DNA of 64,000 bases, from the IMG/VR virus record IMGVR_UViG_3300020185_004854, positions 4,544 through 68,543 of that record, one strand, 5' to 3'. Under the pieces are notes generated by a model. That model had not been told where the DNA came from and searched no databases. It saw only the letters and a list, made by a program, of their open reading frames with translations. This DNA is from a virus. The translations under genes and the position numbers were made by a program. Positions 12,927 to 46,465 of the stretch are shown here, piece after piece; positions within the stretch are counted from its first letter, which is position 1, and every line of letters starts with the position of its first letter.

Positions 12927-13146
12927 ATTTGGTTAAAGTATATTCTATTTTCGAGTCAATATCTTCAACATTATCCTCTTTAGGGATTTTGTCAAGAGGA
13001 ATATCATCTTCCATTTCATTCCCCATCAATACCTGCAACCATTTTTTAGAAACAGGGATTTTCGTTTTACATCCAACCCAATCACTTAGGTCTTCGTAGC
13101 TAATTTCTGTATATGGGCTATGTCCTTTTGGTCTTCCTCTTTTCAT
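12910..13146 (-). CDS. small DNA-binding protein (AT-hook-like)
   Basis: N-terminal KRGRPKG. Confidence 0.5.
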   Translation of the reverse strand: MKRGRPKGHSPYTEISYEDLSDWVGCKTKIPVSKKWLQVLMGNEMEDDIPLDKIPKEDNVEDIDSKIEYTLTKFDDEK

Positions 13147-13226
13147 AATAAATTAATATTATAATAAGAAATTTAGAATGTCAATAGCGTTTTGTATTTT
13201 CTTTGATTTGGGTAAATTCTCTATTG

Positions 13227-13625
13227 TTAAGAGTTATTTATAATTTCCCATCGATTGTCGTAATTCAATCTAAAACTACCTTCATGTTGATCTCCCCAAG
13301 TACATTCGTTTGGAGCGAATAAACTCATGAAGTATTTTTTATTATCTTTTTGGTACAAGTGATATATGTTACCGATAACAGGTTTCATTTTCATTTCAGC
13401 ATTAAATATTACTTCGTTCCATTTAAAATCTTCAGCTAATTCTTCAAATTCTTTTTTTAATTTATTAAATCGCTCTTCATAGTGTTTATTTGCAGAGTGA
13501 ACCGCTCCAATCTTCCATCCACCGAGACTATGATCGGGCTTAATTACAGGTGCAGATAGATTACTTGCATAAGGTAGGGCATAAGCATTTGGTACATAAC
13601 TATCGGGTAATTCTTTTTTGCTCAT
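13227..13625 (-). CDS. DUF2452-like protein
   Basis: LPYASNLSAP..KPVIGNIYHLY..LFAPNE..W; start revised to ATG 13625. Confidence 0.7.
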   Translation of the reverse strand: MSKKELPDSYVPNAYALPYASNLSAPVIKPDHSLGGWKIGAVHSANKHYEERFNKLKKEFEELAEDFKWNEVIFNAEMKMKPVIGNIYHLYQKDNKKYFMSLFAPNECTWGDQHEGSFRLNYDNRWEIINNS

Positions 13626-13816
13626 TACCAATTTTTGATTATATTTGCCATTATAAAAAAACAAGTTGTTATATTTACAACGACTATAATCGTTCTCAAG
13701 ATCAAGCTAAAACTAGCCTCTCTAAGCGAAAGGATTGGAGTATTGGGTTCATCTTTATCAGTTTTGCCGACTCGATGATCTAAAGTTCTAGCCCAAATTA
13801 AATAAAGTTTTTTCAT
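13625..13816 (-). CDS. conserved phage small membrane protein
   Basis: IWARTL..K...LRT followed by a hydrophobic helix. Confidence 0.6.
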   Translation of the reverse strand: MKKLYLIWARTLDHRVGKTDKDEPNTPILSLREASFSLILRTIIVVVNITTCFFIMANIIKNW

Positions 13817-13824
13817 TATTGTAT

Positions 13825-13839
13825 GTGTATATATTACAC
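13825..13839. promoter_or_regulatory. palindromic GTGTA-N5-TACAC element between divergent genes
   Basis: GTGTATATATTACAC carries the GTGTA motif on both strands. Confidence 0.6.
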
Positions 13840-14034
13840 ATGAAAAAGGAAGTCCGCATTGAAATAACTGAAGAAATGTTTAAACAATGGAGCGAATGGG
13901 CAAAACAAAAAAACAGCTCGTTAAATGAGTATATAATAAATTCTGTAGAAGGTCAAGCTATAAAAGAAATGATTATTAATTATTTAAACGAGAGGGACGA
14001 GCAAGAACCTCAATGGGAATTTCGTAATTTTTAA
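13840..14034 (+). CDS. ribbon-helix-helix DNA-binding protein
   Basis: VRIEITEEMFKQWSEWAKQKNSSLNEYIINSV; start revised to ATG 13840. Confidence 0.65.
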   Translation: MKKEVRIEITEEMFKQWSEWAKQKNSSLNEYIINSVEGQAIKEMIINYLNERDEQEPQWEFRNF

Positions 14035-14044
14035 TTAATTAAAT

Positions 14045-14419
14045 CTATCTCAGCTCATCATATACTCTATAAGAGTCTGAATTTTTATGAAACGTACTCG
14101 CTTCAATCAATTTCACCGATCCATTGTGAGCAATAAGTTGGTGAGGTTGACCTTGCTTTATTTCATATTTATCGCCCTTATTTAAGATGATGCAGCTTGA
14201 TTGACCAATTTTAGTATCGATTAGCTCAAGAGCGAGTTGCCCCTCTAGTATATAAAATACCTCATGTTTTTCGAGATGAAAGTGCATAGATGTATGGCGC
14301 TCTTCTTTAATAAATAATTCTTTCCCGCAGTAATTTTCTTCTTCATTATTTGCGAACCATATTTCATGCCCCCATCTTTTTTCTACAAATTTAGTTTTTG
14401 CGCTCATTTTGTTTGTCAT
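14045..14419 (-). CDS. cupin (mannose-6-phosphate isomerase-like)
   Basis: KRWGHE..YCGK..SMHFH..KHEVFY..PH..EAST..DSYR. Confidence 0.8.
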   Translation of the reverse strand: MTNKMSAKTKFVEKRWGHEIWFANNEEENYCGKELFIKEERHTSMHFHLEKHEVFYILEGQLALELIDTKIGQSSCIILNKGDKYEIKQGQPHQLIAHNGSVKLIEASTFHKNSDSYRVYDELR

Positions 14420-14828
14420 TTTCTGCTTGTCGTATTCTTTTTCTCAATTCTGTGCTTGAAAAGTTATGCGAGCGCTTATTGTAGTAAATCTCTATACCTT
14501 TTGTTAAGCAAATATCTTTACCTGAAAATTCAGTATCTTTATAATCCGAGCCAATAATTCTAACATTAATGGGATAGGTCAATAAAATATCATGCAAATC
14601 TTTTTCAAGATTATATGGAATCACTTCATCAACATATTGCACCGAAGATAATTGAATATAACGCTCAACGACACTTTGTATAGGTTTATTTTTATTTGGT
14701 CGCTCAACTTGTGGATCAACATGAAGTCCACAAACTAAATAATCACAAACAGATTTTGCTTCAGCTAACATAGCAATATGCCCTGCATGAAGTAAATCAA
14801 ATGTACTAAATGTAATTCCCGTTTTCAT
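14391..14828 (-). CDS. tagD: glycerol-3-phosphate cytidylyltransferase-like
   Basis: TFSTFDLLHAGH ... FSSTELR. Confidence 0.85.
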   Translation of the reverse strand: MKTGITFSTFDLLHAGHIAMLAEAKSVCDYLVCGLHVDPQVERPNKNKPIQSVVERYIQLSSVQYVDEVIPYNLEKDLHDILLTYPINVRIIGSDYKDTEFSGKDICLTKGIEIYYNKRSHNFSSTELRKRIRQAENDKQNERKN

Positions 14829-14903
14829 TTTGAATTTCTCGCATTATTTGTTTTTTTAAAAAATCGAATTTAAACTTTATTTAAAATAAATTAATTATTT
14901 AAT

Positions 14904-15329
14904 TCACATATTAACGCTCCACTCTTCAGAGTGACTCGTCCAATCTTTATATTTTTCATCTCCTCCACGAATATACCAATCAGAATCAATAGTTAATTTT
15001 GAAGAAATTCCTCCACGAGGATTAAAAATCATTGTTAGTCTTAATCTATCGGGTTCATAAACATCATCAAGATGATCAAAAAATATATTAATTAGCCTTT
15101 CGTAGGATACAACAATATCTCTCAAATTATAGACATATTCTTTTAAACTTTTTAACTCAATAATTTTATTTTTAGGGTAAAAACTAATATAAGCATTTGC
15201 AAAATCGGGTTGATTTTTGACCCCAAGGAAAGTAAATTCGGGGATTTTTACTTTTATTTCATAAGAATTAGCGCTTGGGTTGGGCAAAGATTTTAGAAGC
15301 TTTTGATTTATTTGGTCATATTTTTTCAT
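14904..15329 (-). CDS. QueF-like T-fold protein lacking the catalytic Cys
   Basis: PEFT..QPDFA, ELKSLKEY and PRGGI motifs of short QueF; no Cys anywhere in the protein. Confidence 0.8.
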   Translation of the reverse strand: MKKYDQINQKLLKSLPNPSANSYEIKVKIPEFTFLGVKNQPDFANAYISFYPKNKIIELKSLKEYVYNLRDIVVSYERLINIFFDHLDDVYEPDRLRLTMIFNPRGGISSKLTIDSDWYIRGGDEKYKDWTSHSEEWSVNM

Positions 15330-15360
15330 GAATATATATTACATATAGAAGTTTAGATTT

Positions 15361-15819
15361 CTAGTGATTTGTTCGATCTTGAACTATTTTATTATAATAA
15401 TCTTTATCCCAAAAACTGTAATAGTTTGTATTATGTAATCGTTTAGAATACTCATTCAATTCAGATAATCTTTGAATCATCAAAATCGCATACTCTTTAT
15501 TGTTTGTCTCTATTCCATTTATTTTGTTTATTTGATCGGGGTGATCCCATATTAACCACAGGTCATTTATTTTTGCAAACTGCTGGTGATCGTTGCAAAA
15601 TTCTTCTAGCCATTTTTTATCAAATTGTTTTGAGTCACCATAAATTAAATACAACATTGGATGATTTTTATTTTGTATGCAATCAAATGCATCTGCCATA
15701 AAATTAGTGGATTCAATTATTTTTATTTTATCTAAAAAAGTTTTAGCGAAGGGGCAAATTGAGTGATCTCCAAGCTCTTTTCTTTTTAATGAAATATAAT
15801 CAATATAATCTTTTATCAC
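15361..15819 (-). CDS. CPF-motif protein (DUF1415/YqcI-YcgG-like)
   Basis: ICPFAK, DHP, LMIQR motifs. Confidence 0.55.
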   Translation of the reverse strand: MIKDYIDYISLKRKELGDHSICPFAKTFLDKIKIIESTNFMADAFDCIQNKNHPMLYLIYGDSKQFDKKWLEEFCNDHQQFAKINDLWLIWDHPDQINKINGIETNNKEYAILMIQRLSELNEYSKRLHNTNYYSFWDKDYYNKIVQDRTNH

Positions 15820-15828
15820 AATTTAAAA

Positions 15829-16704
15829 TTAAATATGATTATTAAAATCATCATGAATAATTTTTTGCCAATTTGAAAAATATGCTAAATTGGCGGGTCT
15901 ATCTTTAACTTCATTATATAAGTTTTCAATAAGATTTTTATTTTGAAGATCTTCTATGCGATCAAGCATAATAATTGGTAATTGGGAGTATAGTTTTTTA
16001 TAAATAGCATATTCCTTATTATTTGGCAAAATATCGCTCGAACCTTGCCAAGATTTTTGATCTGCAAAAATTGTAAGAGGAACTCTGTTTAAGTATAAAA
16101 CTTCCCATAATCGATGAGTATCAAGACCATTACCCGCAGGGCATAAAGTAATTTTATGATCTAGAATTGATTGATGAAAATCAGGAGTAGATTTTCTCTC
16201 ACCAGAGGTTATAAAATCAACATTTTGCGCAAAATCATGAACAGCTTGCCTGTGAATAGGGTTTGTTCTAATGGTGAAATTAGAATAAATTAAATTTTCA
16301 GCTCGATTAATATTTTTATCTTCGTCAGTATGTGTAATTAATAGATCTTGCAATTCTTTTGATCTATCATAGTAAACTCCGTGATCAAATCCTCTACGAC
16401 AAATTACACTGCTTTCTAAACCCATTGGAACTGGGACAAAGCGATTATCATTACATAATACATTTTGCCCATAAAGCCGAACTAAATTTTTAGGAGCTTG
16501 ACGAACATGATTTTCTGTGATTGGGTAATCAGAATTACCCGTCAGTAAAATTATTTTTTTGTTCAAATTTTTTAGTCGATCAAACTCTTGAAGAAGGGGG
16601 TCAGTTTTGCAAAAAATGATGCTGGCGTTAGCAGAATCCCGAACAATATAAGAAAATTTATTAGTTTCTATGTAGTCTCCAGCTCTTTCAATATATTCTT
16701 TCAT
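15829..16704 (-). CDS. exostosin/GT47-like glycosyltransferase
   Basis: LCPAGNGLDTHRLWEVLYL..P. Confidence 0.75.
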   Translation of the reverse strand: MKEYIERAGDYIETNKFSYIVRDSANASIIFCKTDPLLQEFDRLKNLNKKIILLTGNSDYPITENHVRQAPKNLVRLYGQNVLCNDNRFVPVPMGLESSVICRRGFDHGVYYDRSKELQDLLITHTDEDKNINRAENLIYSNFTIRTNPIHRQAVHDFAQNVDFITSGERKSTPDFHQSILDHKITLCPAGNGLDTHRLWEVLYLNRVPLTIFADQKSWQGSSDILPNNKEYAIYKKLYSQLPIIMLDRIEDLQNKNLIENLYNEVKDRPANLAYFSNWQKIIHDDFNNHI

Positions 16705-16724
16705 TTATTATGATTAAAATAATT

Positions 16725-17447
16725 TCACTTTAAAAATAAAGTTATTGGATTTGTTTTGTCAATATTTAAATCTTCACTTAAAATTTTAAAACCATATTCT
16801 TTAATAAGATTGTTAAAATTTTGTATTCCTACCCAATACCAACGACCTGTAATATGTTCACCATCTTTATCTAATAGAGCCAACTTAATTAAGTCTTCAT
16901 CAGAATTTATGCCTTCTGCCTTATTTGGTAAATAACCTTTTATAAACCACTTGTTTTCTGGCTCATTATTTAAATATTTTTCGGCATCTGCATACATTAT
17001 ATTTAAAATGCAAGATGTTTTACATTTTTTTGTTAATGTAGATATGTATTCTTTTTGACCTGAATAAGAAATATGACAAAAGACATCATAGGAAAAAACA
17101 TAATCTATTGAATTATCGGGGATGTTATTTAATGAAAAATCGTCTACCTGAATATATTCAATCTTATCTTTTTTATCTTCTCCAACATAGCCCCAGAAAT
17201 TGTTGTGTTCAGCAGACAATACGTCAACGCAATATATTTTATCAAATATATTTTGATCGTATATGAATTTACTCCATTGCCCCCGCCCACAACCTATCTC
17301 TAAGCATGTTTTTCCCACTAAACCATTTGATAGGTAGTCTTCCAGTCCTTTTTGATTTCTTTTTGGGGTGTACCCTGTTTTGAAACCCCCCTTCCAAATT
17401 TGTTTAAAGCTATTAATTTCGTTTGATAATTTATTGCTATTATTCAT
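16725..17447 (-). CDS. class I SAM-dependent methyltransferase
   Basis: LEIGCGRGQW, CVD, IDYVFSYDVFCH. Confidence 0.85.
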   Translation of the reverse strand: MNNSNKLSNEINSFKQIWKGGFKTGYTPKRNQKGLEDYLSNGLVGKTCLEIGCGRGQWSKFIYDQNIFDKIYCVDVLSAEHNNFWGYVGEDKKDKIEYIQVDDFSLNNIPDNSIDYVFSYDVFCHISYSGQKEYISTLTKKCKTSCILNIMYADAEKYLNNEPENKWFIKGYLPNKAEGINSDEDLIKLALLDKDGEHITGRWYWVGIQNFNNLIKEYGFKILSEDLNIDKTNPITLFLK

Positions 17448-17485
17448 ATAATATATTATAAAAATTTACATTTAGAAATCAATAT

Positions 17486-18286
17486 TTATTTAAAATAATT
17501 TTTGTCGTCATATCGTTTTATTTTATCTAAATCACTTGTTTTAGTAATTTTAGAATCTCTTTCGCATAAAAATTTGTAGTGTTCAATATCATCAGACCAA
17601 TCTTGCCCAGTCCAGAATTCAAACCCTTTGTAGTCAGATTTATAAATACAACAATTTTCGTAACCCATTCCCATATACATATAATCTTTATTGTTTTTTA
17701 TACAATAATCTATCTCAGCGAGATTTGCATATTTGCCTAAATATAATTTTGGTTCTGAATAATCCCAAGCGAATTGAGTGGAGAATACGCTATTACTACC
17801 GACATCCCTCATGTAAGTAAAAGCTATTGGAGTATGCCAGCCGCCTTTTTCAGAAGAAGTAGAGTGGTAAACCAAAAAGAATTTACGCTCTTTCTCTAAT
17901 TTAATTAAAGGAGCTAAACTCCAAGGTTTAAAATTTTTATATTCTATATATTTATCAAATATATTAGTTAACACGTCTAAATTTACCTCTTGAGCTTTAT
18001 AAGCCTTTATTTCAATATTATTGCATTTTTTTCTAGTCTTTTTTGCGCTTTTACTATCTTCAAACTTTTTTAAATTTATCCTGGTTTGTCTAGCTTGATA
18101 CCAATGGTTTTTGTCGCCATTATTTGGGATGAAGTAGTCGTCAGGTAACCAGCCTTCTTGTAAAGCTAAATCCTCTTCTTCTAATGGTACTTCAGCCATG
18201 CAGTCAAAAAACATATAATCATATTGAGTAATCGCCCCAGAATAATGTCGAAAATAAATTTGGATATCAGTATTTGGTTTCATCAC
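17486..18286 (-). CDS. aminoacyl-tRNA-protein transferase (ATE/Bpt family)
   Basis: LQEGW..RTRI(N); C-terminal WDY..KLYLGKYA.LAEI....KDYMYMG..Y....YK..Y.GFE matches the ATE_C pattern. Confidence 0.75.
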   Translation of the reverse strand: MMKPNTDIQIYFRHYSGAITQYDYMFFDCMAEVPLEEEDLALQEGWLPDDYFIPNNGDKNHWYQARQTRINLKKFEDSKSAKKTRKKCNNIEIKAYKAQEVNLDVLTNIFDKYIEYKNFKPWSLAPLIKLEKERKFFLVYHSTSSEKGGWHTPIAFTYMRDVGSNSVFSTQFAWDYSEPKLYLGKYANLAEIDYCIKNNKDYMYMGMGYENCCIYKSDYKGFEFWTGQDWSDDIEHYKFLCERDSKITKTSDLDKIKRYDDKNYFK

Positions 18287-18656
18287 CTATAATCCAACCT
18301 TCTGTAGCTGATAAAGATCTATCTAGATATTTACACCCAAGGCTAATAGGCTCAAACTTCTTAAACTCTTCCAAAACTAGAAAATGGTCAAAAGGCTTGC
18401 AACTATAAATATCCAATTGAACTAAATTCGGGTCTGTTTTCTCCCAAGAATGCAAAGCAATATGACTAGTAGTTATTAAACAAAACGAGCTAATTCCTTC
18501 ATTACCTTTTTTATCACACCTCACTGATCTAGGTGCATATAAAATTTTCATATCAATCAAATCGACTAAATCTCTTATCCAATCACTTGTAAAGGTAGGG
18601 TTGCGAAAAGGAGTTGATTTAAATGTCGAATTAACTAAAAGGTGCTTATGATCCAT
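18267..18656 (-). CDS. speD: pyruvoyl-dependent AdoMet decarboxylase-family proenzyme
   Basis: HLL..GIS..LITTSHIALHSW..LDIYSC; self-cleavage site T-SH (usually E-SH). Confidence 0.85.
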   Translation of the reverse strand: MDHKHLLVNSTFKSTPFRNPTFTSDWIRDLVDLIDMKILYAPRSVRCDKKGNEGISSFCLITTSHIALHSWEKTDPNLVQLDIYSCKPFDHFLVLEEFKKFEPISLGCKYLDRSLSATEGWIIGDETKY

Positions 18657-18669
18657 AATAATGGATACA

Positions 18670-19122
18670 CTAAAACAATCTCCAATATTTAATTTCTTTT
18701 TTAAAATCTGAGATTTTTACCATAGAAATAATATCTTTCCTACCCGATCTTTGGTATAATCTATAGAGAGCTAAACGAGAAGAGGTGACAAAATTAACAT
18801 TCGTAATTTTTTTTCTCAACCAATTAAGCAAGCTATCCCTTTCCACTATTAAAAAATAATCTTTTTGCTCAAATGCTATGAAGTCAGCTTTACCCTTTAG
18901 CCACCCAAGGTTACCTCGAACATTCTGAATTTCAAGCCAAGCTATATCGTGATTATAATTGCCATCAGAACGAGAAACTTTTTTAAGCCCTTTGACATCT
19001 ACCAGAGATTTGTTCACTTTAAAATCCCAATGTTCATAAATATCTTGATTTTTTGTAGCTTTAGATATTTGAAATTTTTTTCCCAAGCACATGTTTTTAA
19101 ACCTTAATTCGCTAGCATTCAT
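18670..19122 (-). CDS. PD-(D/E)XK-like nuclease
   Basis: HWDF...VDVKG...WLE..NVRG..GWL.G.ADFIAFE. Confidence 0.65.
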   Translation of the reverse strand: MNASELRFKNMCLGKKFQISKATKNQDIYEHWDFKVNKSLVDVKGLKKVSRSDGNYNHDIAWLEIQNVRGNLGWLKGKADFIAFEQKDYFLIVERDSLLNWLRKKITNVNFVTSSRLALYRLYQRSGRKDIISMVKISDFKKEIKYWRLF

Positions 19123-19124
19123 TT

Positions 19125-19502
19125 CTACATTAATAACGTTTGAATATTATTCTTATCAATCTCTAATTGCGAAATCAAGTCTAAAGTTAAGCCTTTTAAA
19201 GTTGATAGAGAGTCGGAATCAAAATCGAGTAAATGCCCATTCTCACCCGAGACGTTTTCGCTCAATGAAGCTTTCTGGATTTCATCTAAAGAATGTATTT
19301 GTTTGTAATACAAATTATAAAGAGAGTTGATAGACTCGCTAAGGTTTTGATGTAAGTTTTTTTTCTCAGAAACGCTTAAATGCAATTCGTTATTTAAATA
19401 AGAATCCAGAACAAAATGATAAGTTTGATAGGAAGGTTCAAAATTTAAGACTTCTTTAGAGTAAAAACTAAAAGAATCCCAAGCTAGTTCAAGCCTACTC
19501 AC
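19125..19502 (-). CDS. hypothetical protein
   Basis: start revised to GTG 19502 so that it does not overlap the tRNA. Confidence 0.55.
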   Translation of the reverse strand: MSRLELAWDSFSFYSKEVLNFEPSYQTYHFVLDSYLNNELHLSVSEKKNLHQNLSESINSLYNLYYKQIHSLDEIQKASLSENVSGENGHLLDFDSDSLSTLKGLTLDLISQLEIDKNNIQTLLM

Positions 19503-19517
19503 GATTAAAGATGCGAG

Positions 19518-19593
19518 TGGAGCCACCTGTCGGGGTCGAACCGACGACATCCTCATTACAAGTGAGGCGCTCTACCAACTGAGCTAAGGTGGC
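19518..19593 (-). tRNA. tRNA-Thr(UGU) with encoded CCA
   Basis: GCCACCT acceptor, D arm AGCTCAGTTGGTAGAGC, anticodon arm CCTCA-CTTGTAA-TGAGG, GGTTCGAC T loop; 76 nt. Confidence 0.97.
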
Positions 19594-19601
19594 TAGATTA
19601 A

Positions 19602-19775
19602 TTATAAAAATTTCCACAAAATATTAAGCTCTTTTAAGCCGCAATACTTAGCGAAGTAAGCGCAAAATTTAGCAAAATCTTTACTACTCCAGTCTTCTTT
19701 ATTTATAGCTTCGCTAGCAGAAGCGTAATTACCATTGAGCCATAAGTCTGTTATTTTTATATAGGTGTTTTTCAT
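19602..19775 (-). CDS. hypothetical protein
   Basis: ATG 19775 behind TTGACT-17-TATTGT. Confidence 0.55.
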   Translation of the reverse strand: MKNTYIKITDLWLNGNYASASEAINKEDWSSKDFAKFCAYFAKYCGLKELNILWKFL

Positions 19776-19819
19776 ATAACAATACAATATAAAACATAAC
19801 GCAAGAAGTCAAGGGAAAA

Positions 19820-20077
19820 TTACTCAGGATTCCAATTTAAGGCTTTTTTAATTTCTGATTTCGGAAGCCCACCAGATGTTCTCGCGTAAGTTTTACCCGA
19901 TCTTTCAAAAACTAAAGTTGGCACGGACATTATTTCATACTCAGAAGCTAAAGATCGGTTGTCATCAATATCAATAATATCAATGTTTTCACCTTCACTT
20001 TTTAACTCTTCGATAGTAGGTTTAAAAGACCTGCAAGGTCCGCACCAAGCAGCGGTAAAGTACTTTAAGTTGTTCAC
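19820..20077 (-). CDS. trxA: thioredoxin
   Basis: FTAAWCGPC, SVPTL. Confidence 0.92.
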   Translation of the reverse strand: MNNLKYFTAAWCGPCRSFKPTIEELKSEGENIDIIDIDDNRSLASEYEIMSVPTLVFERSGKTYARTSGGLPKSEIKKALNWNPE

Positions 20078-24326: not shown

Positions 24327-26267
24327 TTATTGTTCGAGTTGTATTAAATTATAATAATGAATACAATTTTCATTATCATGTAAGGGTATTAAACTGAATA
24401 AAAAGCTATTTGTAATGACTTTTAAGTGATTAAAATCTTCTTCAGAAAACCAAGATAAGAAGATTTCTTTAAACTCATTAAGCATTGCGTTTTTGTAATC
24501 AGCATTAACAGATTTATTTAATAAAATTTCATCATAACCCAATAAAGATTGATAAATTTTTGCCCAATCATATAGATAGTCACCATATATTGTAAGGGTA
24601 TCCCCTAGTTTTCCTCGCATATCAATAAATTTTATTTTATGATTTTCATTGATTAAAATATTTGAAAAAACTGGATCTCCGTGAATACAACTAATTCTCC
24701 CCAAATTTTTAGATTCGTAGAAGTCTAATTGTTTACATATCGCATCATAAACTTGAGCGGAATTATTAAACCTAGTATAATCATAACTTTCATATCTTTC
24801 TTTTAATTTTGTTTTATAATTTTGATATATATTTATTGTGGAATTATTAGGAGTAATTTTTTGTAATCTCATAATGGATTCCATTACAGCTCTTAAGTTG
24901 TTTGGTTTGAGTAATTCGGATACATATAAATTTGAGACGGTTAATCCCCCCGTTTTTTCTATAGAATACCAAGTTTTATTAATGTCATAATCAATAAAAA
25001 GAGGGAACATGTCTTTAACTTGAGGGGGGATATTCGAGTAAAAATAAATTTCACCAGATAAATCAGTAGATTTTTTAGTGTAAATTTCAAGAGAAGATTT
25101 TTCTAAAACATTAAAGTCCCTAGGTTTTATAGAATCTTGATAGAAGCCAGTTTTCTTTTCTAGATTAGAGAAAGCTGAAATAGCGTTATCATCGATATAG
25201 AAATCTGCATGAGGTTTACCGAAATATATTTCATCGTAAGGTATGTCGAATTTATCTAAGGTCTCAAATGTCACTTTCCCGATGTCAGCGTTCACCGCAC
25301 CTAAATTACTTTTATGAGTTTTCATTCTGCGAGCAGTATGAATAATAATTTTGTGACCAAAACTTTTTAAATATTTTAAGAAGTTAATGTTTTTTTGTAT
25401 AGGTAGAACGGTAGAATAATCATTTGGAACTTGTGGGTAAGATACTAATGTATTATCAAGGTCAAAGCAAAATTTTAAAACTTTCATATTGACAGTTCCA
25501 TCTATAGACGAAACTTTCGGGTAATTGTTGCAAAACTGTCTCAATAGGAGAGGAGTACCTAAAGGATGATAATTGTTTTTGCCAACTAAGCTTGCTGTAA
25601 AAGGTATTTCATCATCAACCATTAGTTTTATGCAAACAGATGTATAAAATTCATTATTAGATTTTAAATTGTTGTCTAATGCGATTTGCGTATAACTCAA
25701 AAGCTGTTGATAGGAAGCAAACCCATAAGCTCCGCAACAAGCAAAATCAGAAATTCTATTTTTTTCTTGCAAATCTAATACACGATAGTTTTTATCTTTT
25801 AATATATAAGAGTGTGCGCAGCTAGAACTTAAATCTTGAAAATAGAAAATTTTATTTTTATGATTCCATTTTTTGATGATATTTTCTGTGTAAAAATTGT
25901 CCGAATCGAGGCAAATAATAGGAAGATCGTAATCAAGAGGCAAACTTTTTAAAGTAAGATTTATAGTTTCAGCAGCTCCTCTTGTAGGCTCGCTTAAACA
26001 TTTAAAGGAAAAATTGATTTCAGGGAATTCTTTTCTAAAGGTGTCTTCAAGCCTGTATTTTTCATGCATTTTGTGATACGTAATACAGACCAAGGTTTCT
26101 TTATTAATTTTTAAATTATTAATTAAATGAACAAGAATAGACTCCCCGAAGACTTTTATTAACGCTTTTGGCTCTTCGTAATTATTTAATTGAAAGCGAT
26201 TACCAATGCCACCAATAGGAATTAGGATAATTTGCTCAAAGGGAAATTCATTTTTAGGTAAACTCAT
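24327..26267 (-). CDS. fusion of nucleotidyltransferase, capsule-biosynthesis HAD phosphatase and APH/choline-kinase-like domain
   Basis: PIGGIGNRF..PK; FDLDNTL..TARRM..FGKPHADFYIDD; HGDPVFSN..FIDMRG. Confidence 0.85.
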   Translation of the reverse strand: MSLPKNEFPFEQIILIPIGGIGNRFQLNNYEEPKALIKVFGESILVHLINNLKINKETLVCITYHKMHEKYRLEDTFRKEFPEINFSFKCLSEPTRGAAETINLTLKSLPLDYDLPIICLDSDNFYTENIIKKWNHKNKIFYFQDLSSSCAHSYILKDKNYRVLDLQEKNRISDFACCGAYGFASYQQLLSYTQIALDNNLKSNNEFYTSVCIKLMVDDEIPFTASLVGKNNYHPLGTPLLLRQFCNNYPKVSSIDGTVNMKVLKFCFDLDNTLVSYPQVPNDYSTVLPIQKNINFLKYLKSFGHKIIIHTARRMKTHKSNLGAVNADIGKVTFETLDKFDIPYDEIYFGKPHADFYIDDNAISAFSNLEKKTGFYQDSIKPRDFNVLEKSSLEIYTKKSTDLSGEIYFYSNIPPQVKDMFPLFIDYDINKTWYSIEKTGGLTVSNLYVSELLKPNNLRAVMESIMRLQKITPNNSTINIYQNYKTKLKERYESYDYTRFNNSAQVYDAICKQLDFYESKNLGRISCIHGDPVFSNILINENHKIKFIDMRGKLGDTLTIYGDYLYDWAKIYQSLLGYDEILLNKSVNADYKNAMLNEFKEIFLSWFSEEDFNHLKVITNSFLFSLIPLHDNENCIHYYNLIQLEQ

Positions 26268-42927: not shown

Positions 42928-43439
42928 TGATTTTAGATAAACAAATTAAAAATTTCCCAGAGTATTTTTACGGCGTTATCGAAATATCGAAGGGTTCTAG
43001 CAACAAATACGAATACAATAAAGATTTCAATATGATTGAATTTGATAGAAAACTATCGAGTTCAATGACGTACCCAGGAAATTACGGATTCGCGCCTAAG
43101 ACTTTAGCTGAGGATGGAGACCCTGTAGATTTAATAATGCTAAGCACTGACCCCATTATTCAATCAGGAGCACTGGTGAAATTAAAACCCTTAGCCTTAC
43201 TTGATATGATAGATTGCGGATCTATTGATAACAAAATCATTGCGACAGTACTAACGGAGGAGAATATAAATGATATTGATGACGTTTGCCCAATGTTCTT
43301 GAGGAAAACTGAAGACTTTTTTGCAAACTACAAAAATTTAGATAATGAAGAAGTGAGCTTAGGAAACTGGGGAAACGCGGACGCCGCAAAAGAATATTTA
43401 AAAAGCCGATATGAAATTGGTGGACGTGGCGGGAGTTGA
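42924..43439 (+). CDS. ppa: family I inorganic pyrophosphatase
   Basis: EI..GS.NKYE, YPGNYGF.P.TL.EDGDPVD, D.K, FF.NYK. Confidence 0.92.
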   Translation: MMILDKQIKNFPEYFYGVIEISKGSSNKYEYNKDFNMIEFDRKLSSSMTYPGNYGFAPKTLAEDGDPVDLIMLSTDPIIQSGALVKLKPLALLDMIDCGSIDNKIIATVLTEENINDIDDVCPMFLRKTEDFFANYKNLDNEEVSLGNWGNADAAKEYLKSRYEIGGRGGS

Positions 43440-43856
43440 ACCCGCGTCTTTAAACCTTCAAAATACACACCTACAAGTTTAGTTAGTTTTTTTTAAAGTT
43501 ATGATACTAACATCCAACTACTTGTTTTAATTATTCACTCAAATTTGAGGCCCCCGAATACTCAGTGGTGCAGTTTTTAAAACTAGTAAAATTTTATCTG
43601 TTTTTGCAGATGTCGTCCTCGTATTCTAAATATCTGCGTCAATAAAAACGAGGGGGTAGCTTTAAGCTACCATCTCAAGCTCTTCAGCTTGCTCGAATTG
43701 CACGAGGGAATCGTACTCTTCAGTAGCAGCTTCAAGAAGCTCTTTAATGCTATAATAACCTTCGCCATATACAGCTTTGTGTCTTGATATCGGAGCCAGA
43801 CACACCTCCGACTTGCAGTATATAGATCCAACTTAAATCAAATCCAGTACACGCCC
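43418..43856 (-). ncRNA. ssrA: tmRNA, 439 nt
   Basis: 5' GGGCGTG pairs with 3' CACGTCC-ACCA including G3-U70; T arm GCGGGTTCAACTCCCGC; pk1-like element; tag ORF 43766-43662 with stop in hairpin GGTAGC-TTAAA-GCTACC. Confidence 0.93.
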
Positions 43857-43993: not shown

Positions 43994-46465
43994 TTAGTTT
44001 TGAGTTGTTTGTGATTTAGAATAAGTGAATTTTTTATTCACATAATCAAATTTAACAGTATCATTATTAACGATGTCTTTTGATAATATACTCTCGCAGA
44101 GTATAGATTCAATATGCTGATTAAATAATCTTTCAATCGGTCTCGCCCCAAGATTTAAATCTTTTAATTTTGAAACTAAAAAGTCTAAAACATTTGAAGA
44201 TATACTTATGAGAATTTTCTTAGCTTTCAATCTTTTGTTTAAAGTTTGCATATAGATTGATATTATTTTTGTATAGTGATCGTCTGAGAAATTAGAAAAT
44301 ATTACAATATCACTTATCCGATTAACAAATTCAGGGGAAAAATGTTTACAGGCTAAATTATTAATTTTTTCATTTATGATATCTTGATTAACTCCATTAG
44401 AGAGAAACCCAACAGATTGAGATGGTTTGTCTAGAATATCGCTGCCAAGATTACCAGTTAAAATAATTAAGCAATTTTTGAAATCAGCAGACCTACCATA
44501 ATTATCACTAAGCTTACCCTCATCAAGAATCAAAAGCAAGGATTTCAAAACATCTGGGTGAGCTTTTTCAATTTCATCAAAAAGAATAACACTGTAAGGT
44601 TTTTTTCTGACTTGATCCACTAAATTACTACCATCTTCATAGCCAACATATCCTGGGGATGACCCTGTAATTTTAGAAGAACTTGAACTTTCGGAAAACT
44701 CACCCATATCAATTCTAATAATTTTATCTTCACCCCCGTAAATAAATTTAGACACTTGTTTAGCCATGAAGGTTTTTCCAGTTCCAGTTCGACCAAGTAA
44801 CAAAAAGACTCCAGCAGGTTTTTGAGGATTGTTTAATCCGCAAGCTGAACGATGTATGGATTGGCAAATTTTTTGTATAGCGGCATCCTGTCCGATAATC
44901 TCTTTCTTAAGGTTACTTTCTAACTTTAAGTACTTATCGTCCGAGGAGGATGATATAATTGACAGAGGGATTTTAACTTTTTGAGAAATGACTTCTTCAA
45001 TATTTTCTTTTGAAATGTATATCTTTTTTTTTGAAATCGTTTTCTGCCAATCATCTAAAATCGTTTGATACTTTTCAAAAAGATCATCAACGCACTCAGC
45101 TAATACTTTTCTCCTCTCCTTGTCAGTGGTAGACTCCTCCTGATCTATTAAAGATTCTAAAGAAGACTCTAAGTTTAATATTTCTTCTGGTCTGTGAAAG
45201 TTTTTCACTCGAGCTTTCGAAGCAGCTTCATCTATGATATCAATAGCTTTATCTGGCAAAAAGCGATCATTAATATATCGAGAACTAAGTTCTACCGCAG
45301 CCTCTAAAGCGTTTTTTCTGAATATAACTTGGTGAAAAGCTTCGTATTCTGGAGCTAAACTCTTTAAGATATTAAGACAATCTTTCTTAGAAGGCTCTGA
45401 AACTAAAACTGATTGAAATCTTCTTGATAAAGCAGAGTCTTTTTCAATTGAATTTTTGAATTCTTTTAAAGTGGTAGCTCCTATACATTTTAAATCCCCT
45501 CGAGCGAGTAACGGTTTTAATATATTAGCGGCATCCATTCCGCCTTCAGCATTTCCAGCACCCATTAAAGTATGAACTTCATCAATGAATAAAATGTTTT
45601 TTTCCGAGGATTCAGCTTGTTGTAAAATATCTTTTAAACGCTCTTCGAATTGACCCCTGTATTTAGTTCCAGCAAGAATACTATTAAAATTTAAACTAAA
45701 AACTTCGCAGTTAAGTAATATTTCGGGAACTTGCTTGGATACTATTCTTTGAGATAACCCTTCTATTAAAGCTGTCTTTCCAACGCCAGCTTCACCTAAG
45801 ATTATTGGGTTGTTTTTTACCCTGCGACATAAAATTTCTATAACCTGGTTAATTTCATCTTCCCTACTGACGACTTCATCAAACTTACCCTGAGAAGCAA
45901 GTGTTGTATAATTGATTGAAAACTGCTCTAAGGGGTTTGGGTCATGATCTTTTTGAACCTTTGCTTTTAAATTATTTTCCTTAACGCTGTTAAGGAATTT
46001 CTTGAGATCTTTACGTTTTTCTTCCACGTCGCCCTCTAGTGTAGTTTGAACAGCTTGAAAGATTACATCAGGATCCAAGTCAAAATTTAAGAATAAATTT
46101 TGAACATTAGGATTGGATTGTAAAGAAAGAAATACATGCTCAACCCCTACGTAATCATGACCATAGGATATTGCTAATTTCGAAGAATCTCTTAATAATA
46201 TTTTAAAGCTTCGAGAATAATTAATATCAATTCTTTCATTTTTAGATATAGTAGGAGGCGAAAAATTTAACACAGCTTTTTTTAATTCTTTTAAGGATAG
46301 GGCAGCCTCTCCTCCCATAGAAAAAAACAGAGTATCTTGCACTTTAAAAATTCCATAAATTAAATGTATGGGATCTACGGATTTAACTCTAGATTGCACG
46401 CATAAATTTTTAGCTATTTTAATAGCTTGTTGAACCCTGGGGGTAAAATTTGGCAACATATCCAT
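43994..46465 (-). CDS. clpC: ClpC-type AAA+ unfoldase
   Basis: Clp-N repeats, GEAGVGKT/FIDEVH, short middle coiled coil, GRTGTGKT/FDEIEKAH, GYVGY pore loop, VGF ClpP-docking loop. Confidence 0.92.
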   Translation of the reverse strand: MDMLPNFTPRVQQAIKIAKNLCVQSRVKSVDPIHLIYGIFKVQDTLFFSMGGEAALSLKELKKAVLNFSPPTISKNERIDINYSRSFKILLRDSSKLAISYGHDYVGVEHVFLSLQSNPNVQNLFLNFDLDPDVIFQAVQTTLEGDVEEKRKDLKKFLNSVKENNLKAKVQKDHDPNPLEQFSINYTTLASQGKFDEVVSREDEINQVIEILCRRVKNNPIILGEAGVGKTALIEGLSQRIVSKQVPEILLNCEVFSLNFNSILAGTKYRGQFEERLKDILQQAESSEKNILFIDEVHTLMGAGNAEGGMDAANILKPLLARGDLKCIGATTLKEFKNSIEKDSALSRRFQSVLVSEPSKKDCLNILKSLAPEYEAFHQVIFRKNALEAAVELSSRYINDRFLPDKAIDIIDEAASKARVKNFHRPEEILNLESSLESLIDQEESTTDKERRKVLAECVDDLFEKYQTILDDWQKTISKKKIYISKENIEEVISQKVKIPLSIISSSSDDKYLKLESNLKKEIIGQDAAIQKICQSIHRSACGLNNPQKPAGVFLLLGRTGTGKTFMAKQVSKFIYGGEDKIIRIDMGEFSESSSSSKITGSSPGYVGYEDGSNLVDQVRKKPYSVILFDEIEKAHPDVLKSLLLILDEGKLSDNYGRSADFKNCLIILTGNLGSDILDKPSQSVGFLSNGVNQDIINEKINNLACKHFSPEFVNRISDIVIFSNFSDDHYTKIISIYMQTLNKRLKAKKILISISSNVLDFLVSKLKDLNLGARPIERLFNQHIESILCESILSKDIVNNDTVKFDYVNKKFTYSKSQTTQN

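Follow-up and report, generated by a model that had tools for sequence, protein, structure and literature searches.

A Conserved SpeD-like, ATE-like, and CPF Gene Trio in Marine Phages: A Candidate tRNA-Dependent Route to an Arginine-Derived Small Molecule

Results

Gene Content of the Locus

The viral record IMGVR_UViG_3300020185_004854 (IMG/VR) is 68.5 kb long, with a completeness of ~51% and a GC content of ~31–33%; complete related phages are 180–206 kb (n = 5). The 64,000-nucleotide stretch that we analyzed (the window) makes up most of this record, and its gene content includes a DnaE-like polymerase, a ClpA/B-like ATPase, sigma-factor-like proteins, tRNA-Thr, and tmRNA. Our subject is a run of six genes at positions 14904–18656, which had been predicted from the sequence alone to form a tRNA-dependent aminoacyl-transfer and tailoring module. 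All six genes lie where that prediction placed them, on the minus strand, which carries every gene between 14045 and 21568, and their families are broadly as described.

Three of the six are central to this work. The first encodes a SpeD-like proenzyme of a pyruvoyl-dependent decarboxylase (129 amino acids [aa]; 18267–18656, minus strand; Pfam AdoMet_dc, 2.9e-9), and the second encodes an ATE/Bpt-like aminoacyl-tRNA transferase without the ATE_N zinc-finger domain (266 aa; 17486–18286, minus strand; Pfam ATE_C, 7.4e-7). The third encodes a protein with an invariant ICPFA motif (the CPF protein; 152 aa; 15361–15819, minus strand) that belongs to no Pfam family and matches phrog_10325, whose function is annotated as unknown. 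The SpeD-like and ATE-like genes overlap by the 20 nucleotides (nt) originally reported if the latter starts at its GTG, and by 17 nt if it starts at an ATG one codon further on. In most orthologs the ATE-like gene starts seven codons further in, and the corresponding codon in the window is mutated to ATC. Among the related loci with SpeD directly upstream of ATE, the two genes overlap by anything from 0 to 47 nt, and by 4 nt in 6 of 13.

Near-identical DNA was found in marine and seawater metagenome runs. Every gene junction from the QueF-like gene at one end of the run to the SpeD-like gene at the other was bridged by contigs from the marine runs X1, X2, and X4 (the window itself may derive from the sample of one of these runs), which indicates that the gene order is not an assembly artifact, and both junctions of the methyltransferase gene that follows ATE were bridged by independent marine contigs. 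A scan of positions 13000–20000 for promoters and terminators was uninformative (43 promoter-like sites versus 37.4 expected).

SpeD, ATE, and CPF Form the Conserved Unit

We compared the arrangement of these genes in two sets of related loci; gene presence and co-occurrence, like the family and fold assignments, residue conservation, and gene fusion described below, were computed directly. The first set was seeded with the ATE-like protein and consists of 13 viral loci in which this protein is 62–83% identical to that of the window. SpeD lies just upstream of ATE in all 13, and CPF is also present in each. The second set came from a search with a CPF alignment and consists of 24 loci with a CPF protein at least 56% identical to that of the window (24 distinct contigs in addition to the window, 13 of which are the ATE-seeded set). 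SpeD, ATE, and CPF occur together in 24 of 24, in agreement with the proposal that a tRNA-dependent transferase is tightly linked here to a pyruvoyl decarboxylase and a CPF protein.

The trio occurs in three gene orders. SpeD, ATE, and CPF are contiguous and in that order in 15 of the 24 contigs; in four others, genes are inserted between ATE and CPF, or CPF is on the opposite strand; and in the remaining five the order is ATE, CPF, a PAP2-like gene, a SET-domain gene, and a divergent SpeD gene (SpeD′). In these five contigs, which represent a different branch of the family, ATE is ~33–35% and SpeD′ ~20% identical to the window protein, and we read SpeD′, from its sequence, as a probable non-orthologous replacement that was recruited independently. 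The PAP2-superfamily and SET-domain genes lie between CPF and the divergent SpeD at, for example, L166:6468-7581 and L161:6044-7169. In the 19 contigs that have an orthologous SpeD upstream of ATE, the two genes overlap by up to 47 nt or are separated by at most 1 nt, with one exception (L150), in which ~300 nt lie between them. A divergent locus (L021) has all three genes in yet another layout, together with a radical S-adenosylmethionine (SAM) gene and a stretch of 80 residues that weakly matches amidinotransferases (36%).

The rest of the run varies from locus to locus. The class I SAM methyltransferase between ATE and CPF (16725–17447, minus strand; Methyltransf_23, 1.5e-10) is lineage specific and was found in none of the 13 ATE-seeded loci. 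A weakly glycosyltransferase-like protein (291 aa; 15829–16704, minus strand) has counterparts in two; the likeness to GT47 enzymes for which it had been named is weak, as its matches to RXYLT1_C (1.3e-4; 21.9 bits versus a cut-off of 27) and Exostosin_GT47 (0.021; 14.6 bits versus 33.4) both fall short of the Pfam thresholds. Cupin genes occur in 3 of the 13 loci, and QueF-like genes (14904–15329, minus strand, in the window; Pfam QueF, 1.2e-16) occur in 5. A DUF2452 gene (13227–13664, minus strand, in the window; Pfam DUF2452, 1e-11) is a frequent neighbor of the trio and lies within the flanks of 10 of the 13. Because SpeD, ATE, and CPF are constant across loci and layouts while the other genes vary, we conclude that the conserved unit is this trio and not a six-gene module: the anticipated co-occurrence holds for three of the six genes and fails for the rest. 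In the window, the trio has been interrupted by insertion of the methyltransferase and GT47-like genes, and the methyltransferase, GT47-like, QueF-like, cytidylyltransferase, and cupin genes are variable cargo rather than required parts.

The QueF-like T-fold protein was correctly described as lacking the catalytic Cys. It has Gly at the position of Cys55 of B. subtilis QueF, as is the case in 6 of 6 orthologs, and it scores 85.2 bits with TIGR03139 (cut-off, 86.9). As the original prediction stated for the window, other que genes are missing: we found no match to the TGT, QueC, FolE, or PTPS families in the whole 68.5 kb record, which is ~51% complete, and TGT/DpdA was found in none of the five complete relatives. 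A role for the QueF-like protein in 7-deazaguanine modification of DNA was rejected because the catalytic Cys and the TGT, QueC, FolE, and PTPS matches are all missing. We found no support for DNA modification as the role of the cassette, and among the targets suggested earlier, phage DNA has nothing that points to it.

The SpeD-like Protein Resembles a Pelagiphage Arginine Decarboxylase

The SpeD-like protein scores 37.7 bits with AdoMet_dc (PF02675; cut-off, 25). Ser64, the precursor of the pyruvoyl group, is kept in the window protein and, like Asp82 and Cys86, is invariant among 20 homologs; His69 is nearly so. A match at the level of an equivalog for S-adenosylmethionine (AdoMet) decarboxylase failed (TIGR03330, 27.8 bits versus a cut-off of 75.65). 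When we searched 50,697 phage records, we obtained 12 matches at E ≤ 1e-3, from 11 pelagiphages and one marine fosmid, and none of the 12 was a cyanophage record. Among the best isolate matches was gp22 of HTVC201P (AXH71538), at 39.5% identity.

The HTVC201P enzyme, which is derived from an AdoMet decarboxylase, is the nearest characterized relative of the window protein. According to PMC9992855, it is active on L-arginine only, being inactive on ornithine and lysine, and it did not rescue spermidine accumulation in E. coli with speD deleted; the same source gives the SpeD of cyanophage S-PM2 as a proven AdoMet decarboxylase. The HTVC201P and window proteins are of the same size, share the class 1b SpeD fold, and keep the Ser, His, and Cys residues, but the HTVC201P gene stands alone beside ribonucleotide reductase genes, whereas the window gene overlaps an ATE-like gene. 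The pelagiphage-type matches (which include HTVC201P and no cyanophage) and the low TIGR03330 score favor arginine decarboxylation, and our best guess from these comparisons is that the substrate of the window SpeD is L-arginine.

We found no spermidine synthase family match in the whole, about half-complete record, which extends the earlier observation that the window contains none. This absence is echoed in three of the five complete relatives, which have no aminopropyltransferase, but the other two encode an aminopropyltransferase-family gene elsewhere in the genome.

The ATE-like Protein Retains the Catalytic Domain of ATE1 and Lacks ATE_N

The window ATE-like protein scores 30.2 bits with ATE_C (PF04377; cut-off, 25). 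ATE_C also matched all 20 members of its family that we aligned and was found in most of 84 metagenomic ATE-like homologs. A Foldseek search with an AlphaFold2 model of the protein (mean predicted local distance difference test score, 82.7) recovered the ATE1 fold, in keeping with the original assignment: the best match was human ATE1 (8tzv; 1.2e-9; query-normalized template modeling score, 0.65), followed by the yeast and K. lactis ATE1 proteins (~1e-6) and then by alanyl- and lysyl-phosphatidylglycerol synthases, FemX, and leucyl/phenylalanyl-transferase. ATE1 and these other enzymes all use aminoacyl-tRNA. In a profile search of the PDB, ATE1 was the sole match (1.9e-6).

We mapped individual residues by a phmmer pairwise alignment to yeast ATE1, which is of low identity, and took the roles of the K. 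lactis (klAte1) residues from PMC9351520. As described there, Trp260, Tyr303, and Lys304 are active-site and tRNA-contact residues, and Glu277 recognizes the side chain of the arginine on Arg-tRNA; the Leu-specific Bpt has Gln at this position. The ATE_N domain of klAte1 holds a pocket for the acidic N terminus (Arg80, Tyr25, and Tyr87) and a zinc finger, the metal-binding residues of which are Cys23, Cys26, Cys95, and Cys96 (PMC9351520). W174, Y215, and K216 of the phage protein are invariant in the 20 members and pair with W260, Y303, and K304 of klAte1; E191, which is present in 18 of 20, pairs in the same low-identity alignment with Glu277. ATE_N was not matched in any of the 20 members at E ≤ 1, and no Cys is invariant in their alignment, from which we conclude that the family lacks the ATE_N zinc finger; the zinc-finger cysteines described for klAte1 have no counterpart in the phage family. 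R66 and R69, conceivable counterparts of Arg80, are also invariant.

The phage protein thus shares with ATE1 and Bpt the ATE_C GNAT domain, the overall fold, and equivalents of the four klAte1 residues described in that source, and it differs from them in having no ATE_N match and no zinc-finger or Fe-S cysteines, in being half the size of ATE1, and in being encoded by a gene that is locked to SpeD and CPF. It also scores far below the NCBIfam models for bacterial arginyltransferases (22–37 bits, the best being 36.7, versus cut-offs of 170–252). The retention of the active-site and tRNA-contact residues and of E191, together with the loss of ATE_N, suggests that it is a working transferase that probably uses Arg-tRNA and whose acceptor side has been remodeled.

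In a tblastn search of the 50,697 phage records, the ATE-like protein had no match, so no isolate among them carries such a gene. A profile scan of the genomes of 185,579 species found at least three loci, which is an undercount, as a single peptide pattern was usable.

The CPF Protein Belongs to a Large Phage Family

At E ≤ 1e-3 the CPF family comprises 629 representative clusters, a large phage family that has no Pfam model. In 60 members, C22, D92, H93, and Q116 are conserved together with aromatic residues, and C22-P23 is invariant; the ICPFA motif follows the first helices. The same 60 members have weak Pfam links to DUF6875 (14 of 60) and DUF1415 (7 of 60), both of unknown function. The ESM Atlas yielded leads to these two families only, and a literature search for DUF1415 returned unrelated papers only. 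The cyanophage homologs S-PM2 p080 and Syn1_090 lie among hypothetical genes near baseplate genes and offer no functional hint.

Profile searches of the PDB with CPF alignments gave chance-level rows only. Foldseek, run against the PDB with a model of the CPF protein, returned nothing at E ≤ 0.001; the top structural match of the model was AglA. The AglA structure, which typifies the YqcI/YcgG enzymes, is a sheet sandwiched by helices, with heme on Cys44, and the basic residues at its heme propionates are Arg166, Lys196, and Arg200 (PMC12866846). The first (N-terminal) helix is followed by a YPC motif that contains Cys44. At L149:2175-2945, in the single bacterial genome that served as a YqcI/YcgG seed, a YqcI/YcgG gene is followed 6 nt later by what we recognized by eye as a GNAT-like acyltransferase gene.

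CPF Genes Adjoin or Are Fused to Putatively Arginine-Related Genes

We also examined 53 distant CPF loci. SpeD overlaps the start of CPF in four of these and is fused to it in two, and a short ATE_C-like gene (146 aa) precedes CPF in three. The SpeD-CPF fusion protein P0174 (265 aa) contains the Ser, His, and Cys motifs of SpeD as well as ICPFA, DHP, and YYSYW motifs, and fusions of this kind were found on three viral contigs. An amidinotransferase homolog directly adjoins CPF in 12 of the 53 loci (14 distinct contigs when the fusion loci are included). Pfam missed this homolog, and its PDB matches are HsvA (2.5e-25), StrB1 (6e-22), SxtG (1.4e-17), and AGAT (~1e-16). Amidinotransferases take the amidino group from arginine, and HsvA prefers polyamines. 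Examples of such genes beside CPF or a SpeD-CPF fusion in smaller marine phages are L192:6368-7447, L199:2840-3922, and L069:6795-7862.

As SpeD, ATE, and amidinotransferase genes are all found beside CPF, the CPF gene neighbors three different arginine or guanidine enzymes. The proximity of HsvA/StrB1/AGAT homologs to distant CPF genes and to the fusions points to arginine-derived guanidino compounds; the window has no amidinotransferase, and in its lineage the ATE-like gene takes the place beside CPF. Guanidino-amines of the agmatine type may be the common substrate of CPF proteins, as SpeD and amidinotransferase would both yield such compounds. The arginine/guanidine theme of the original prediction has therefore gained ground on three counts: the relationship of SpeD to the HTVC201P arginine decarboxylase, the Glu kept in ATE, and the amidinotransferases beside distant CPF genes.

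Discussion

A Possible Arginyl-tRNA-Dependent Pathway

We tentatively propose, at somewhat short of an even chance, that the trio constitutes a tRNA-dependent pathway to a small molecule of the arginine or agmatine type; the function of each protein, all substrates, the order of the steps, the binding of heme, and the product are what we infer. The SpeD-like proenzyme would cleave itself to form a pyruvoyl group and would decarboxylate an amino acid, most likely L-arginine to agmatine, thereby supplying a free primary amine. The ATE-like enzyme would then move an aminoacyl group, most likely arginyl, from a charged tRNA onto the amine of a small molecule rather than onto the acidic N terminus of a protein, yielding an amide, for example arginyl-agmatine. 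Finally, the invariant Cys of CPF would tailor the guanidino group, the favored chemistry being a heme-thiolate N-hydroxylation like that catalyzed by AglA.

The closest worked-out analogy is the biosynthesis of argolaphos. In the account of PMC12866846, AglA hydroxylates the guanidine of a compound that the Arg-tRNA-dependent ligase AglC has made by acylating a small amine; the AglA substrate was prepared from aminomethylphosphonate, Arg, ATP, tRNA, arginyl-tRNA synthetase, and AglC. AglC and AglA of Streptomyces monomycini would thus share the logic that we propose, arginylation of a small amine from Arg-tRNA followed by thiolate-heme hydroxylation of the guanidine, and the phage trio offers candidates for argolaphos-like roles: a maker of the amine, a transferase of the Arg-tRNA type, and an AglA-like protein. 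Because AglC and AglA make a small molecule, the analogy also argues against the modified macromolecule that had been envisaged as the product. The parallel has limits. The candidate tRNA-dependent GNAT ligases of the argolaphos cluster, AlpF and AlpO, belong to pfam13480 and COG3146 (PMC8976061); the phage transferase is ATE-like, unlike these two. The amine would come from a pyruvoyl decarboxylase in the phage and comes from a phosphonate pathway in argolaphos, and the phage genes are viral.

A more far-reaching version of the proposal is possible but doubtful. It holds that marine phages, both large ones and smaller ones that carry the SpeD-CPF or CPF-amidinotransferase forms, make their own arginine metabolite; that ATE has been repurposed from the ends of proteins to become an amide ligase for small amines; and that CPF is a new, minimal thiolate-heme N-oxygenase that gives an N-hydroxyguanidine or a di-guanidino polycation. 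Such a metabolite could serve in DNA condensation, control of ribonucleotide reductase, or nitric oxide-type signaling.

Weighing the Proposal and Its Alternatives

Several observations weigh against the proposed pathway. The original prediction had linked the CPF protein to the YqcI/YcgG family, which its sequence does not bear out: PF08892 missed the window protein, all members of two family samples (0 of 19 and 0 of 60), and the record as a whole at E ≤ 10, and hhalign of CPF against 12 true YqcI/YcgG members gave a probability of 0.2% (E = 0.3). The only stretch that hhalign aligned does set ICPFA on FPCFW, pairing the two cysteines, which counts for the heme reading although it is not significant. 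Against that reading, no column of the 60 CPF members is Lys or Arg at ≥75% to match the propionate ligands reported for AglA, and the CPF protein, at 152 aa, is ~120 residues shorter than the 274-residue AglA chains. We place the idea that CPF is an AglA-like heme enzyme at roughly an even chance. As for SpeD, its substrate does not follow from 39.5% identity to an arginine decarboxylase, the aminopropyltransferase-family gene in two of the five complete relatives would suit an ordinary AdoMet decarboxylase, and SpeD occurs alone in 73 of 80 SpeD loci. Neither SpeD nor ATE is present in 44 of the 53 distant CPF loci (CPF 27–38% identical). Finally, a distant clade of ATE-like proteins (~224 aa) has no SpeD or CPF in 47 of 48 loci, many with short flanks, and the same is true of the flanks of the ATE loci from bacteria or metagenome-assembled genomes (3 of 3), so the transferase can work without SpeD and CPF; and the SET-domain gene of one operon type could hint at protein targets.

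The distant ATE loci and the SET-domain gene would fit an ATE-like enzyme that modifies proteins, adding Arg or Leu to host or phage N termini and so making or masking N-degrons, with SpeD and CPF as separate auxiliaries. Known ATE1 and Bpt enzymes act on proteins, and the phage protein keeps their fold and active-site residues; the window also encodes an 823-aa ClpA/ClpB-like double AAA+ ATPase (43994–46465, minus strand; phrog_4871, 2.3e-222), which the ClpA model matches from end to end (671.7 bits). Yet the domain that is missing, ATE_N, is the one described as holding the acidic-N-terminus pocket and zinc finger of klAte1; searches of the half-complete record turned up neither ClpS nor ClpP; and SpeD and CPF have stayed with ATE through three rearrangements and one non-orthologous replacement of SpeD. 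We regard this explanation as unlikely. A simple boost of polyamine synthesis of the kind known from other marine phages, in which SpeD would feed agmatine/putrescine or decarboxylated AdoMet into the polyamine pathway of the host and ATE and CPF would be unrelated, co-inherited neighbors, also strikes us as quite improbable. It draws on the abundance of stand-alone SpeD homologs in phages, on a polyamine role that is documented (PMC9992855), and on the two relatives with an aminopropyltransferase-family gene, but three of the five relatives have none, SpeD and ATE are nearly always contiguous in the 19 contigs with an orthologous SpeD, unrelated phages have SpeD fused to CPF or overlapping it, and in five contigs a ~20%-identical SpeD, which we read as recruited independently, lies elsewhere in the ATE-CPF operon.

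It is similarly improbable, in our estimate, that the trio is a pathway in which CPF is something other than a heme hydroxylase. CPF would then have a thiol active site built from Cys and an Asp-His pair, with the activity of an amidase or of an amidino or acyl transferase, or serving to carry the aminoacyl group, or it would be a non-catalytic partner of SpeD. The conserved C22, D92, H93, Q116, and aromatic residues, the weak links to DUF6875 and DUF1415, the missing sequence link to YqcI/YcgG, and the lack of a conserved basic residue for heme propionates all favor such a protein, and the SpeD fusion is compatible with a subunit role. Least probable by far is the reading with which the locus was first described, in which all six genes together serve to put a modification on phage DNA, glycan, or protein and to tailor it. 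The six genes are indeed co-oriented and tightly packed, in an arrangement that is real in marine populations, but the methyltransferase, GT47-like, and QueF genes are missing from most or all of the 13 related loci, QueF has no catalytic Cys, and the searches for TGT/DpdA (in the record and the five complete relatives) and for QueC, FolE, and PTPS (in the record) came back empty.

If the proposed arginyl-tRNA-dependent pathway is correct, it would mean that phages use charged tRNA for chemistry outside translation, that an ATE-type enzyme can act on something other than protein N termini, and that there is a new, arginine-based form of viral auxiliary metabolism. The making of arginine-derived compounds would be an unusual job for a virus, and as far as our searches show, this would be the first virus-encoded, tRNA-dependent biosynthesis of a small molecule. 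Two large families, CPF (with its 629 clusters) and the phage ATE-like family, would be given a first function. Full-text searches turned up no publication on a phage ATE-like enzyme or the SpeD-ATE-CPF cassette, and among papers that mention "arginyl-tRNA-protein transferase" and phage, none concerns a phage-encoded enzyme, judging by titles and abstracts. Short genes and inexpensive proposed substrates make the hypothesis open to direct bench tests.

Other Features of the Distant ATE Loci and the Window

Of the 48 loci in the distant ATE clade (L022–L068 and L018), 44 encode a protein of ~68 aa directly downstream of the ATE-like gene, possibly a small partner or substrate dedicated to the transferase of that clade. 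GroES-like and DUF3310-like genes, recognized by eye only, lie near these ATE genes.

Outside the six-gene run, the window contains sugar-nucleotide-like genes at 14045–14828 and 24327–26267 (both minus strand). They encode an RfaE-domain-II/TagD-like cytidylyl/adenylyltransferase, a WbuC-like cupin, and a 646-aa protein with a phosphoheptose-isomerase-like segment, and together with the GT47-like and methyltransferase genes they may make up a separate glycan set. The tmRNA lies at 43418–43856 (minus strand); it matches Rfam RF00023 over its full length (98 bits versus a gathering threshold of 47), and ARAGORN predicts a tag peptide for it.

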